Of a stretch of DNA of 64,000 nucleotides, positions 5,591-9,405 are shown piece by piece. The notes under the pieces were generated by a model. It was not told where the DNA came from, ran no database searches, and saw only the letters and a program-made list of their open reading frames with translations. This stretch comes from Thermoflexales bacterium (GTDB lineage: Bacteria; Chloroflexota; Anaerolineae; Fen-1058), in contig DAOTXX010000152.1 of assembly GCA_034434835.1 (NCBI GenBank), positions 5,594 through 69,593 on the forward strand, written 5' to 3'. Within the stretch, counting starts at the first letter, position 1, and every line of letters begins with the position of its first letter. The translations under genes were made by a program, and so were the position numbers.

Positions 5591-6526
5591 TCATGCTCTT
5601 GACGACCTGAACTGTGGATCGCGCTCGAGCGTCAAGCCGAGTCCGGTGTCCAGGTCCACCTTGGGTGTAAAGTTGAGCAATTGCTGCGCTTTGGAGATGT
5701 CAGCACACAGCCGTGAAACGCCGCCGGTCTGGGCGCCGCTGTGCAGCACGTTCACCTTGCGACCGGTAACCCGGCTGATTTTCTCGACTAGCGCATTGAT
5801 GCTGATGTCGGTGCCCGACCCAATGTTGATGATCTGCCGATCTACGTTCCTGGCCGTCGCCGCGGCGACCAAGCCGTCCACCACATCGTCCACATACACG
5901 AAATCGCGGCTCTGTCGCCCATCGCCAAAAACCACCAGGCTTCCCCCGCCGAGCGACTGCTTGAGGAACTGCGGGATGACTGGCGCATGCGCCGGCGGCA
6001 CAGCTTGCCCTGGCCCATACGCATTGAATACGCGCAAGATCACCGTCTCGATGCCCCACAACTTGCCGATCGTACGGACATAGTGCTCGGAAGATACTTT
6101 GCTGGCGGCATAGGGCGAGCCGGGGTCGGGGCTGAAATCTTCACGCACGGGCTGCCGATCCTGCTCGCCGTACACAGCGCCGGACGACGTGAACACGACA
6201 CGCTTGACGCCCGCGTCACGCATCGCTTCCATCACGGCGACCGTCCCACCGACGTTGACCGCGTTATAGTCGCGCGGATAGAGAATGGATTCGGGCACGG
6301 ACACCCGCGCGGCGAGATGATACACACAGTCCACTCCCTGCAGCAACGTCCACAGCTTGGGCACGTCTGTGACATCGCCGCGTGTGAACATGACTTGCGA
6401 ATCGAGCCGCGCCGGATCGCCTGCGGACAGATCGTCGAGCACGCGAACGGTGTGACCGGCACGCGCCAGGCGGTTCGCCAGCGCCGCGCCCAAAAAGCCC
6501 GCGCCGCCTGTGACGAGAAATCTCAT
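5591..6526 (-). CDS. NAD-dependent epimerase/dehydratase (extended SDR, UDP-glucose 4-epimerase-like)
   Basis: TGGAGFLG, HLAA, SSGAVYG, YAASK, RDFVYVDD. Confidence 0.93.
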   Translation of the reverse strand: MRFLVTGGAGFLGAALANRLARAGHTVRVLDDLSAGDPARLDSQVMFTRGDVTDVPKLWTLLQGVDCVYHLAARVSVPESILYPRDYNAVNVGGTVAVMEAMRDAGVKRVVFTSSGAVYGEQDRQPVREDFSPDPGSPYAASKVSSEHYVRTIGKLWGIETVILRVFNAYGPGQAVPPAHAPVIPQFLKQSLGGGSLVVFGDGRQSRDFVYVDDVVDGLVAAATARNVDRQIINIGSGTDISINALVEKISRVTGRKVNVLHSGAQTGGVSRLCADISKAQQLLNFTPKVDLDTGLGLTLERDPQFRSSRA

Positions 6527-6660
6527 GGGATGTCCTGTACTAAATGTCGAGTCTCAAAAGACCATGGATTGATGAGGTGCGGAATGAGATTATAGCACAG
6601 GCACAGTCTCTGTGGAATATGCAATATACCCAACGCGGGCACAAATTGCGCTTTTCTCAC

Positions 6661-6746
6661 GTCAACGAATATTGAACGAATAAACGAATAGGCCCGCTGG
6701 CCGCGCTCATTCGTTGATTCGTTGCGCCGAAGGCGATTCGTTGACA
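6661..6746. repeat. Palindromic element built from ACGAAT repeats
   Basis: GTCAACGAAT...ATTCGTTGAC inverted ends; a related copy lies at about 10888-10962. Confidence 0.6.
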
Positions 6747-6816
6747 GGGATGAGAACGAACACAAAAGCGCAAAACATGACCGTGCTCAGTATAGCAATA
6801 TACCTGCCTTGACATC

Positions 6817-6845
6817 TTGACGCCTCACAGCGAGTGTGATAAAAT
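6817..6845 (+). promoter_or_regulatory. Sigma70-type promoter P1
   Basis: TTGACG-17 bp-TAAAAT with TG in the extended -10 position. Confidence 0.75.
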
Positions 6846-6905
6846 CTGGTCAACTTTGAGGATTATGCCTCAAGATACTTGACCAAGCGAGATGGAGAGC
6901 CGGGC

Positions 6906-7061
6906 ATGAAAGCCAGGCTGCATGTCTATCAATCTATAACCGGATGTTCAGGCTGCCCGATGCAGCAGCCCGATGCGTCGTTTGCCACGCGCTGGGCAGG
7001 CGTCATCGTGCTCAGCCTGGGCAATGCGGACCTTGGCGCCAAAGGAGGTGGGCAGGGCTAA
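6906..7061 (+). CDS. Putative 51-aa leader peptide (MKARLHVYQSITGCSGCP...GGGQG)
   Basis: GGAGAG RBS upstream of the ATG; stop codon lies inside an antiterminator-like hairpin. Could instead be a non-coding structured RNA. Confidence 0.4.
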   Translation: MKARLHVYQSITGCSGCPMQQPDASFATRWAGVIVLSLGNADLGAKGGGQG

Positions 7062-7087
7062 ATCTACCTGCTGCCCATGTTCCTTTT

Positions 7088-7124
7088 GGCGCAAGGCCCC
7101 CTCGGGTCTTGCGCCTTTTTATTT
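7088..7124 (+). terminator. Intrinsic terminator with a competing antiterminator
   Basis: GGCGCAAG-GCCCCCTCGGGT-CTTGCGCC followed by TTTTTATTT; 7031-7046 can pair with 7081-7096. Confidence 0.8.
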
Positions 7125-7151
7125 GTACGTTACAAACCAGCCGTATATGTT
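7123..7151 (+). promoter_or_regulatory. Possible second promoter P2
   Basis: TTGTAC-17 bp-TATGTT. Confidence 0.4.
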
Positions 7152-7295
7152 TTGTTCTATGTTTGAGGTGTTGGCTCAAGACGGCCCCCTCCCTCGCCTT
7201 TCCACCTGCTGGGAGCGGGGGGATGGAGAGGGAGGAGGCGATTGAGCCGGGGCGGGCGGCGAACAGGCCACCAGGCACACCGTCGCCCGCCATGT

Positions 7296-7339
7296 GGAGA
7301 TGCTGGCGCGCGTGAGAGGTTCGATTCCTCTCATCTCCA
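7296..7339 (+). ncRNA. tRNA-like minihelix (acceptor stem plus T arm, no D or anticodon arm)
   Basis: GGAGATG/CATCTCC 7-bp acceptor stem, 12-nt linker, AGAGG-TTCGATT-CCTCT T arm, discriminator A, no encoded CCA. Confidence 0.65.
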
Positions 7340-7342
7340 TCT

Positions 7343-7525
7343 GGGACACGGGTGACCTTCGAGGGTCATCGCCCGAATCGTCGCTTGCGCCCGGCGCTGA
7401 ACCGGGATACACTTGCGGCGAGGGAACTCTGAGTGTTCAGTGGTGACGGGGGCCGGCCCCGCTCGATGTCCCACGATCGTTCTGTATGTTGCGTGCCGCA
7501 GGTCAGCCTGGCCTGCGGCACGCGA
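7343..7525 (+). ncRNA. Multi-branched structured RNA or leader upstream of the HNH gene
   Basis: GGGACA/TGTCCC closes 3-4 hairpins (7343-7472); a ~17-bp hairpin (7488-7526) ends just before the RBS. Confidence 0.45.
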
Positions 7526-7547
7526 CGGAGTAAGAGGTACTGCCAAC

Positions 7548-8036
7548 ATGCATCGAGTGCTTGTCCTCAACGCGACCTATGAGCCGCTCAACACAGTGAG
7601 TATGCCGCGCGCAGTAGCCTTGCTCCTGGCCGACAAAGCCGAGATCGTCGAGGCGGCCGAGGCTCAACTGCGCAGTCAGTATCTCACCCTGCCGATGCCG
7701 CTGGTCATCCGGCTGGTCACCTACGTGCGCATCCCGCGTATGTTGCCGCTGGCCGTCACGCGACGCGGCGTGCTCAAGCGTGACAACTATACCTGCCAGT
7801 ACTGCGGACGGACGCAGGCCTCGGCCGAGCTCACACTCGACCATGTCGTACCGCGCAGTCGGGGCGGCAAGAACGTCTGGGAAAACGTCGTGGCTGCGTG
7901 CAAGCCCTGCAACCATCGCAAGGGCAACCGCACGCCCGGCGAGGCGCATATGCGCCTGCTCCGCCAGCCGTTCCGCCCGCGCTACCTTGCGTTGGTCGTC
8001 GTAGATATGCCGCCTGTGTGGCACAAGTATCTGTAA
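7548..8036 (+). CDS. Stand-alone HNH endonuclease (zinc-finger HNH, McrA-like fold)
   Basis: VLVLNATYEPL N-terminus, RDNYTCQYCG, TLDHVVPRSRGG, WENVVAACKPCNHRKG. Confidence 0.95.
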   Translation: MHRVLVLNATYEPLNTVSMPRAVALLLADKAEIVEAAEAQLRSQYLTLPMPLVIRLVTYVRIPRMLPLAVTRRGVLKRDNYTCQYCGRTQASAELTLDHVVPRSRGGKNVWENVVAACKPCNHRKGNRTPGEAHMRLLRQPFRPRYLALVVVDMPPVWHKYL

Positions 8037-8076
8037 ACTCTCCCTCCCCTGTCCGTTGGGACAGGGGAGGGTTGGA

Positions 8077-9405
8077 ATGAGGGTCATGCGGACATTCTTG
8101 AAGCGTCTATGGATGTTTGCCAAGCTCGCCGTTATGCTGCTCAGCGTGAGCGCGCTGATCGTGCGGGAATACCCGTTGCCGGGCGAGTTTGTCCCGGCGG
8201 TCCATCGCCTGATCGGCAGCGAGATTTTTGACTTTGTCGGTTGGGAAGTTCAAACGCTCACGGCCAAGGGCGCGCAGATGCTCGTGCCGGCATCCAACTA
8301 TCTCGACGAGGCGCGCCGCAAGTCCCTCGTCCTTGATTACATGGACCTAGTGCAGCGCATTGAATTCCTCCAGAATGAGATTGACGGCATCTACGCTGAT
8401 CCCCAGATCACCGATCCGGCGGCCGCCTCCGCCCATCCACGCCAAGAGCTGGCGCGACTGCGCGCGCAGCAAGTCGCTCAACAGACCACCGTCGAAACAA
8501 TCATCGAAGAAAAAGTTTCAATCATCCTCAGCGAGCAAGGCTTTGCCGTCGGCGGGCAGGTGATCCCGCCGCTCAAGTTTCGGCTCACGCCGCTGCCGCA
8601 AATGCTCATCGTCTCGCCGCGCGACCAGATTTATCAGAAGGAAGCCTTTCCGCTCGAAGCAAGCCTCACGACCGACCGCGCCGAAGAGCTCGAGGCTGAG
8701 ATAGATCGGCGTTTTGATGTTTCGTCGCTCGTCGTGTTCATCGGTGGATTGGGATTCTATCCGACGATGCTATTGGAAAGCACGTCATTACCCTGGACGC
8801 TTGAGGTGGCCGCGCACGAGTGGACGCATAACTGGCTGGAATTTCGCCCGCTGGGCATGAACTATTCCAAATCGCCCCAGACGCGCACGATGAACGAGAC
8901 GACGGCCAACATTGTGGGCCAAGAGATCGGCGAAATGACCCTGCACAAGTTTTTCCCTGAGCTGGCGCCACCGCCGCCCCCCACCCCACCCCCCGGCCCC
9001 ACTCCAACCCCGGCCCCGACGCCCACGCGCGATCCGAACCGCTTTGACTTTCGGGCCGAGATGCGCACCACACGCGTGGAGGTAGATCGTCTGCTGGCCG
9101 AAGCGCGCCAGGCCAAAGAAGCGGGAGACCCAACCACGGCGGCTGCGCGGATCAACGAAGCCGAAGAGTACATGCGTCAGCGGCGCAGGTTCTTTGCCGA
9201 GCATGGCTATTCGATCCGCAAGCTGAATCAGGCGTACTTTGCCTTTCACGGCGCTTATGCGGATCAAGTCGGCGCGGCCGGCGAAGACCCGGTCGGCCCG
9301 GCGGTCAAGCGCCTACGCGATCGCAGCCCGTCGCTCAAGGCATTCCTAGATACGATTGCTTCCATGACCACGTTTGAGGAACTCGAGCGGGCGTTGGGAG
9401 AATAG
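8077..9405 (+). CDS. Membrane-anchored hypothetical protein with an HExxH motif (putative zinc peptidase)
   Basis: N-terminal TM helix; AAHEWTH followed by MNETTA; PT-rich linker. Confidence 0.8.
   Translation: MRVMRTFLKRLWMFAKLAVMLLSVSALIVREYPLPGEFVPAVHRLIGSEIFDFVGWEVQTLTAKGAQMLVPASNYLDEARRKSLVLDYMDLVQRIEFLQNEIDGIYADPQITDPAAASAHPRQELARLRAQQVAQQTTVETIIEEKVSIILSEQGFAVGGQVIPPLKFRLTPLPQMLIVSPRDQIYQKEAFPLEASLTTDRAEELEAEIDRRFDVSSLVVFIGGLGFYPTMLLESTSLPWTLEVAAHEWTHNWLEFRPLGMNYSKSPQTRTMNETTANIVGQEIGEMTLHKFFPELAPPPPPTPPPGPTPTPAPTPTRDPNRFDFRAEMRTTRVEVDRLLAEARQAKEAGDPTTAAARINEAEEYMRQRRRFFAEHGYSIRKLNQAYFAFHGAYADQVGAAGEDPVGPAVKRLRDRSPSLKAFLDTIASMTTFEELERALGE

Follow-up and report, generated by a model that had tools for sequence, protein, structure and literature searches.

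Stand-alone HNH genes beside tRNA arrays have been noted for years in cyanobacteria, mycobacteria and phages, and to our knowledge no mechanism has been offered that goes past "homing endonuclease?". A 64,000-nt stretch of DNA from a Thermoflexales bacterium (contig DAOTXX010000152.1, positions 5,594 to 69,593 of the forward strand; hereafter the window, in whose numbering all positions are given) raises the question in a new form, since an HNH gene of this family is preceded there by a run of structured sequence. What is this structure, and what might it do for the nuclease gene that it precedes? A conserved, modular structured RNA occupies positions 7168-7547 of the + strand, directly 5' of a stand-alone HNH gene of the Cas9/IscB type. 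The RNA is absent from Rfam and was uncatalogued until now. Its parts, with the gene that follows, are:

7168-7248, + strand: 5' module, with an 18-mer, GTGTTGGCTCAAGACGGC, at 7168-7185 and helix P1 formed by GGCTCAA (7173-7179) and TTGAGCC (7242-7248)
7250-7291, + strand: hairpin 2, GGGCGGGCGGCG / CGTCGCCCGCC
7296-7339, + strand: tRNA-like domain, with a 7-bp acceptor stem, a CUGG D-loop mimic, a T arm and a discriminator A, and no anticodon arm
7343-7472, + strand: 3' module of seven helices, closed by GGGACA (7343-7348) and TGTCCC (7467-7472), found only upstream of HNH genes
7488-7527, + strand: hairpin of 18 bp proximal to the ribosome-binding site (RBS), just before the Shine-Dalgarno sequence (SD)
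7532-7537, + strand: SD of the HNH gene, AAGAGG
7548-8036, + strand: HNH gene, ATG at 7548, 162 aa (Pfam HNH_5, 9e-19; HNH, 7e-16)

Eighty genome loci were retrieved via the HNH protein, four of which carry the RNA (L001, L032, L002 and L003); a further carrier, the Thermoflexales locus L150, was retrieved via the homolog P0046. Counting the window, the RNA adjoins the HNH gene in six of the six carriers fetched by HNH similarity, and it does so in about 20 metagenome loci as well. RNA-carrying loci are 73-84% identical to the window in nucleotide sequence, and their HNH proteins are 70-84% identical to the window's. The fold of 7140-7550 beats shuffled sequences on both strands, with z of -5.55 (+) and -5.59 (-), so that folding energy alone does not choose the strand; the RNA is assigned to the + strand because the substitutions are G-U-compatible. 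In the window the RNA is single copy and not a dispersed repeat; an earlier note on this DNA, made from the letters alone, had named dispersed repeats as one outcome that would count against its proposal. No second copy of the 18-mer was found in the window with up to 3 mismatches, nor of the 3' module with a covariance model, nor of 6850-7547 by self-BLAST. Inside 6850-7547 neither Tandem Repeats Finder (TRF) nor self-BLAST gave tandem repeats, and all that TRF reported were two 8-nt repeats beyond the RNA, at 6675-6724. A search of the whole 64-kb window against Rfam 15 gave no match at gathering thresholds; at E<=10 the segment 6500-8200 gave only spurious miRNA-type hairpins and low-scoring matches to tmRNA_permuted (16 bits) and tRNA-Sec (16.9 bits, E=4.4). 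In the related loci and arrays Rfam found only tRNAs and one group I intron. A literature search for the 18-mer sequence found no paper. In IMG/VR, the 18-mer and a degenerate 3'-module pattern had 0 matches, and a phage origin was rejected for that reason.

The earlier note had proposed a structured leader of about 700 nt, built of a hairpin, a minihelix (the tRNA-like domain), a multi-branch fold and a hairpin of about 17 bp abutting the RBS of a 162-aa HNH gene. The structured RNA is there, as is the gene, which is the open reading frame (ORF) 7548-8036 with its Pfam HNH_5 and HNH matches. The length did not hold up: the RNA is 380 nt long (7168-7547), and 6906-7125 is a 51-aa ORF and a terminator. 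Each of the four proposed structures is present, but three of them are lineage-variable inserts. The RBS-proximal hairpin, for example, is absent in most relatives, and L001 and L117 have a hairpin of different sequence at the same position. The compact locus L150 has the 18-mer hairpin and then directly the 3' module, with no hairpin 2, minihelix or RBS hairpin. The conserved core of the RNA consists of the 5' and 3' modules, and it lies partly outside the coordinates proposed earlier (7250-8036), a range that leaves out the 5' module with the 18-mer, the most conserved element of all. The alignment of upstream regions that the note had suggested shows compensatory changes in both modules.

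The 5' module is a long irregular hairpin, in which P1 (GGCUCAA/UUGAGCC) leads via an internal loop, GACG/GA, to a variable hairpin, P1b (26-sequence alignment, A6). Seven of the nine P1b pairs are compensatory, and the partner strand of P1 varies solely in G-U-compatible ways, from UA to UG four times and from GC to GU twice. The 18-mer is identical in all six loci, window included, that were fetched by HNH similarity. Metagenome contigs were then scanned by exact match to the 18-mer, which gave 65 loci (L081-L145), about 41 of them in the family; the non-family matches are chance ones, within a secretin gene or AT-rich marine DNA. Fourteen of the loci, here called class B, have neither the HNH gene nor the 3' module (L086, L090, L091, L111-L113, L118-L120, L122-L124, L129 and L138). 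They keep the synteny nonetheless: an epimerase gene, a gene for an HTH_17 (excisionase-type) protein, the 5' module with its own terminator and a homolog of the window's ORF 8077-9405. The class B RNA, about 130 nt in length, stands right after the HTH_17 stop codon and is made up of the 18-mer hairpin, another hairpin and an intrinsic terminator. Because a conserved -10-like sequence for the next gene, GGTATNAT, follows the terminator, the class B RNA forms a separate unit. Hairpin 2, which pairs GCGGGCGGCG (7252-7261) with CGTCGCCCGC (7281-7290) in 10 bp including one G-U, is present in most class A and class B loci. Two other origins for the 18-mer were considered and set aside. Descent from the anticodon arm of a tRNA-Leu(CAA) was rejected, as the 18-mer has no similarity to array tRNAs; an HDV-like, hatchet or other self-cleaving ribozyme, or a K-turn, was rejected by reasoning, given the misfit of topology, and there was no Rfam match.

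The 3' module shows covariation throughout its fold. In an alignment of 18 distinct sequences (A3), its 38 pairs are 96.5% paired; the tool divides them into 8 helix segments, which correspond to the seven named helices. There are 24 compensatory pairs, against 9.3+-2.0 in column shuffles, none of 500 of which reached the observed count, and at most 9 in slid controls. The helices include the closing helix, a hairpin GUGACC/GGUCAU, a long-range helix AUCGCC/GGYGAC (GGUGAC in the window) and three more hairpins, and the junction nucleotides CGCCCGAA, GGGAAC and GUGGYGACGG are highly conserved. A covariance model of the module, R1, gave 27 matches in the approximately 0.9 Mb searched, including compact L150. 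The matches are confined to class A and class C loci, and lie always 5' of the HNH gene where the contig reaches far enough; class C comprises L109, L110 and L145, and in L110, whose contig includes the gene, the HNH protein is 51% identical to the window's. R1 had no match in loci of the tRNA type, in plasmid arrays or in class B loci.

Between the two modules lies the tRNA-like domain. Its acceptor stem is perfect in the window (GGAGATG, 7296-7302, with CATCTCC, 7332-7338); the T arm is AGAGG-TTCGATT-CCTCT (7315-7331, with a UUCGAUU loop), and the discriminator is A7339. The domain is well kept in 17 class A sequences, with an acceptor of 5-7 bp, a YNGG D-loop mimic, a near-invariant T arm and a discriminator A or G followed by CCUG, an NCC-UG trailer like that of genuine array tRNAs. 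The domain's variable hairpin is deleted in the window, where 12 nt separate the acceptor strand from the T arm. ARAGORN found no full cloverleaf, neither tRNA nor tmRNA (transfer-messenger RNA), in the 64-kb window, and a tRNA gene at 7296-7339 was rejected on that ground. A permuted tmRNA was rejected as well, since the 5' acceptor strand directly precedes the T arm and a tag ORF is lacking. Like the tRNA-like domains of tmRNA, YrlA and the MALAT1 mascRNA, the domain combines an acceptor and T arm with a GG D-loop mimic, lacks an anticodon arm and sits inside a longer transcript, where cuts by RNase P and RNase Z would part the flanking RNAs. Unlike tmRNA and YrlA, it has no tag ORF and no rsr neighbour, and its Rfam scores are far below gathering thresholds.

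The window's HNH protein belongs to a family that is embedded in tRNA gene arrays, a link which the earlier note had pointed to and which homologs in arrays (by tblastn and tRNA calls) and the literature (PMC8421152, PMC5966550) bear out. The protein had tblastn matches on plasmids of Nostoc, Calothrix, Tolypothrix, Mycobacterium and Acaryochloris, which cover 87-100% of the query at 40-55% identity. In one locus (L152), 10 tRNA genes, the HNH homolog and 18 further tRNA genes follow one another, 28 tRNAs in total; in another (L153), the homolog is followed by 21 tRNA genes. In 16 of 43 Chloroflexota loci, tRNA genes of the same strand lie no more than 150 nt upstream of the HNH ortholog. The identities of these tRNAs differ, from arrays of 15-18 tRNAs (L004, L005 and L010) to Gln-Met, Gln-His, Leu(taa) and His. 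In the window, then, the RNA takes the place that tRNA genes hold in related Chloroflexota, and it shares one module with true arrays. In L098, L105 and L135 the 18-mer module begins 2-3 nt after a tRNA 3' end and another tRNA follows; L105 is a 24-tRNA array with the 5' module embedded in it and an HNH gene, 44% identical to the window's, at its end. The 5' module is thus also a non-tRNA spacer inside tRNA arrays. The array-linked HNH proteins of Anabaena (all8564) and of mycobacterial units (PMC8421152, PMC5966550) are homologous to the window's over the full length. The loci differ in that the window has no tRNA gene in 64 kb, with the tRNA-like domain and two non-tRNA structured modules instead, none of which is described in those papers, and in that the window's locus is chromosomal and syntenic, not plasmid-borne. 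Array-linked HNH genes have been treated as homing endonucleases that spread the arrays (PMC8421152, PMC5966550), and all8564 is co-induced with its tRNA array by translation inhibitors (PMC8421152).

Several further features of the tRNA-type loci were observed. The closest plasmid homolog, from pREB6 of Acaryochloris marina (L154; 55.6% identity), has no adjacent tRNA gene; it adjoins metG, the methionyl-tRNA synthetase gene, and is near a YlxR-family gene. The last array gene before the HNH gene in L004 (1919-1992), L005 (2419-2492) and L010 (2799-2872) is called as a 74-nt "tRNA-Leu(CAA)", which has class I length, no long variable arm and an A1-U72 pair, and is not a normal tRNA-Leu. In L004-L007 and L010, the approximately 130 nt between the last tRNA and the HNH gene hold two hairpins, a conserved one, TGCCGGC..GCCGGCA, and one that resembles a terminator, GGAGCCCGGGCC..GGGCTCTCTTCGTTT. 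The group I intron (Rfam, 71.8 bits) lies at 1602-1863 of L010, within the tRNA array. In L022 (2969-2976) and L023 (2977-2983), GTTGGCTC and GTTGGCC, respectively, directly follow tRNA-His, 24-32 nt before the HNH gene; by their sequence they resemble the core of the 18-mer and may be degenerate copies of it.

The HNH domain of the window's protein is closest to those of IscB and small Cas9 proteins. NCBIfam gave partial IscB (4.9e-18) and Cas9d matches, in the HNH domain only, and the best PDB sequence matches are the HNH domains of TbaIscB and small Cas9, with which Foldseek agrees. Two CxxC pairs, H99, N113 and N122 are invariant across 78 relatives. Across the approximately 7,900 proteins found at E<1e-10 the protein is well conserved and present in single copy, and the gene occurs in many gene contexts besides those above. 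Residues 1-56 form an N-terminal domain that AlphaFold2 predicts, from a deep alignment, as beta-beta-alpha-beta-beta with a pLDDT of 91.5; a shallow alignment had given low confidence for this domain, and the deeper one was used instead. Against PLMP, hhalign sets EPLNTVSMPRAVALLL against RPLMPTTPRKARLLI without significance (E=0.055, probability 1%), and a profile of the domain searched against the PDB found no IscB, IsrB or IF3 chain; PLMP homology by sequence was rejected accordingly. PADLOC gave generic HNH domain matches only, and a defence system was rejected on that account.

How the RNA and the HNH gene might be transcribed is suggested by a unit just upstream, which has the following parts:

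6817-6845, + strand: sigma-70-like promoter, TTGACG-17-TAAAAT with TG
6906-7061, + strand: 51-aa ORF, MKARLHVYQ...LGAKGGGQG, a candidate leader peptide
7035-7046 with 7081-7092, + strand: candidate anti-terminator helix, competing with the terminator via a shared GGCGCAA
7088-7125, + strand: intrinsic terminator, stem 7088-7115 and U-run to 7125

Many indels notwithstanding, all 20 related loci keep the 51-aa ORF open, and its C-terminus, ..CA(K/R)GGGQ, is conserved. Neither Pfam nor NCBIfam has a match for its product, which may act as a leader peptide or as an independent small protein. A proposal that 6860-7125 is a second non-coding RNA or riboswitch ("RNA-1") was rejected, since this segment is the conserved ORF plus the terminator. 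In most relatives the ATG of the ORF overlaps the stop codon of the HTH_17 gene (ATGA); in the window, L001 and L117, the promoter sequence replaces most of that gene, of which the window keeps only the last 13 or so codons (6869-6908). The last codons of the ORF cover 7035-7046, and its stop codon (7059-7061) lies inside the anti-terminator helix. The terminator is 94% paired and the competing helix 88.8% paired, the latter with 5 compensatory pairs against 2.0 in shuffles. Judged by its sequence, 7035-7125 looks like a ribosome-sensing attenuator. As in ribosome-mediated attenuators, an intrinsic terminator competes with a helix, one strand of which is overlapped by the 3' end of the leader ORF; unlike in them, the leader is long at 51 aa, it has no obvious stalling motif, and covariation is modest.

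We tentatively favour, with somewhat less than even confidence, a reading in which the RNA is a leader that descended from a tRNA-array cassette, is co-transcribed with the HNH gene and acts in processing or regulation. What is left of the tRNA-array/HNH cassette would then be a leader RNA maintained under selection. Transcription would enter at the promoter at 6817-6845 and read through the terminator into the RNA and the HNH gene. Such read-through is probable because predictions place neither a promoter nor a terminator between 7125 and 8036, and because in five relatives (L088, L095, L097, L101 and L003) the 18-mer starts about 10 nt past the upstream terminator, a spacing that leaves no room for a promoter of its own. 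A ribosome at the stop codon of the 51-aa ORF would favour termination and slowed translation would favour read-through, so that attenuation would couple HNH expression to translation stress. Induction by stress is an extrapolation from the arrangement of leader ORF and terminator and from the cyanobacterial homolog, with whose induction read-through under translation stress fits (PMC8421152). The tRNA-like domain is probably cut by RNase P and RNase Z; these cuts would set the 5' module free in the form of a small RNA, and the HNH mRNA would then begin with the closing helix of the 3' module. The 3' module, being strictly linked to HNH genes, would act in cis to stabilise or regulate the mRNA, and it may be bound by the N-terminal domain of the nuclease itself.

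Several observations weigh against this leader model. We infer co-transcription and processing from the layout of the sequence. Covariation of the anti-terminator is modest, in that 10 of 500 shuffles reach the observed count. Two orthologs with 70-76% identity, P0039 and P0043, lie 24-70 nt after a glycosyltransferase gene and have no leader. L002, L003, L150 and the class C loci do without the tRNA-like domain, so that processing cannot be essential there. Between the 3' module and the ATG lie about 25 nt in some loci and up to about 200 nt in others, all of unrelated sequence, and neither a conserved SD-sequestering helix nor a terminator was found after the module; with so variable a distance to the SD and no platform, a simple switch is not evident. 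Finally, the absolute invariance of the 5' strand of the 18-mer exceeds the needs of pairing and is not explained by the model. Across L081-L145 this invariance is built in by the exact-match seed, and independent support for it comes only from the six loci that HNH similarity brought in.

Alternatively, the HNH protein might have the whole RNA or a processed piece as its partner in a true ribonucleoprotein, the N-terminal domain binding a hairpin and the RNA activating, targeting or restraining the nuclease. We regard this as unlikely. IshB proteins consist of PLMP and HNH and have about 180 aa (PMC10734217, PMC11610941), and the PLMP of IsrB and IscB is a beta-beta-alpha-beta-beta (PLMP/IF3-N) domain that contacts SD-bearing terminal hairpins of the omega-RNA (PMC9581776). 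The window's protein fits IshB in size and architecture (PMC10734217): it is small and stand-alone, with an HNH domain closest to IscB/Cas9, no RuvC and a short N-terminal domain whose beta-beta-alpha-beta-beta topology, predicted with high confidence, is that given for PLMP/IF3-N (PMC9581776), and a structured RNA of about 300 nt, like an omega-RNA, lies immediately upstream and reaches the SD. The strict co-occurrence of the 3' module with HNH genes, a family that always adjoins structured RNA, be it tRNAs or RNA of the window's type, and the invariant 18-mer, which suggests sequence-specific recognition, point the same way. Against a ribonucleoprotein, HEARO/omega-RNA had no match at E<=10 over 6500-8200, nor in related loci, and the 5' end is invariant, so that there is no variable guide. 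Homology to PLMP is not significant and the N-terminal domain has no sequence match in the PDB; the single-copy locus has no IS200/IS605 context, neither TnpA nor ends. Further, close orthologs dispense with an adjacent RNA, and the 5' module survives without HNH. Membership of the window's HNH protein in IshB is plausible but unproven, and the RNA is not a HEARO/omega-RNA, tRNA or tmRNA. Rather improbable, too, is the broader idea that the IscB-type HNH proteins which travel with arrays are RNA-dependent nucleases, whose IF3-N/PLMP-like domain docks on the tRNA elbow or on structured RNA that activates, guides or restrains cleavage; if true, the locus would be a living example of the HNH-plus-RNA state proposed to have come before IscB and Cas9. 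It is improbable, as well, that the RNA and the gene are mere neighbours, the 5' module being a small RNA gene of its own beside which HNH and its 3' leader were inserted, with no functional tie other than a preference for the insertion site or read-through. The 14 class B loci keep the synteny without HNH and 3' module, and the -10-like GGTATNAT marks a separate unit there; HNH genes also occur in many other contexts, and the literature regards them as homing endonucleases (PMC8421152, PMC5966550). However, in L098, L105 and L135 the 18-mer module accompanies HNH proteins only 43-51% identical to the window's and a tRNA-type architecture, making recent insertion beside a bystander unlikely, and the 18-mer is identical in alleles with and without HNH, unlike a homing site. 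The single-copy, well conserved state of the HNH protein across the roughly 7,900 relatives also speaks against such an insertion.

The 3' module by itself could be taken for the aptamer of a ligand-binding riboswitch that controls the HNH gene, as its compact fold of several helices covaries strongly, its junction nucleotides are highly conserved, and it stands directly 5' of a single ORF. We consider this very unlikely, since it has no conserved expression platform, with no terminator predicted after 7472 and a distance to the SD of 25-200 nt, and since it is tied to one nuclease gene, not to metabolic or transport genes, and has no Rfam match. A signal at the level of DNA, in which the HTH_17 protein or the HNH protein itself would use the 18 bp as a site of binding, recombination or homing, would account for the absolute conservation of one strand beyond the needs of pairing and for the HTH_17 (excisionase-type) gene just upstream in class A and B loci. 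The G-U-compatible changes in the partner strand and the covariation of the enclosed hairpin both point to RNA, however; the site also stands 2-3 nt after tRNA 3' ends in arrays with no nearby HTH gene, and the window keeps it though its HTH gene is gone. Such a signal is highly improbable. The earlier note had named partner, substrate or antitoxin as possible roles of the RNAs, none of which is supported here; the last would make a type III toxin-antitoxin pair with HNH as the toxin. Apart from this suggestion, only the general layout of a nuclease gene preceded by a structured RNA favours the pairing, and it is extremely unlikely: 6850-7547 holds no tandem repeat units of the type III kind, PADLOC found nothing beyond the generic HNH domain, and orthologs exist without the RNA.

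The locus gives a concrete point of attack on the so far unexplained association of this HNH family with tRNA arrays. The same protein family is kept here beside a covariation-supported RNA with a tRNA-like domain and an 18-nt element that is also found in genuine arrays. The 5' module, the tRNA-like domain and the 3' module are defined pieces of RNA for work on binding, processing and regulation. If the RNA is a leader, it would be a new class of cis-regulatory RNA and give the HNH family a plausible translation-stress circuit; if it is a partner, it would bear on the origin of the RNA-guided IscB and Cas9.

The gene neighbourhood consists of the epimerase gene, the 51-aa ORF, an ORF of about 442 aa and an M29 peptidase gene; its synteny is stable across loci, and the region is single-copy in the window. 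Between the HNH stop codon and the next ORF, which starts at ATG 8077, lies one more feature:

8042-8071, + strand: hairpin whose 3' arm has the SD GGGAGGG

That ORF, 8077-9405, encodes about 442 aa (449 aa if started from TTG 8056) with a HEWTH motif; Pfam gave no match for it, and loci with and without HNH alike keep it downstream of the RNA. On the other side, three direct AACGAATA and three inverted ATTCGTTG copies around GGCCCGCTGGCC form an operator-like palindrome at 6640-6745; the gap that contains it, which separates the divergent epimerase gene from the promoter at 6817-6845, is AT-richer (GC 0.47).

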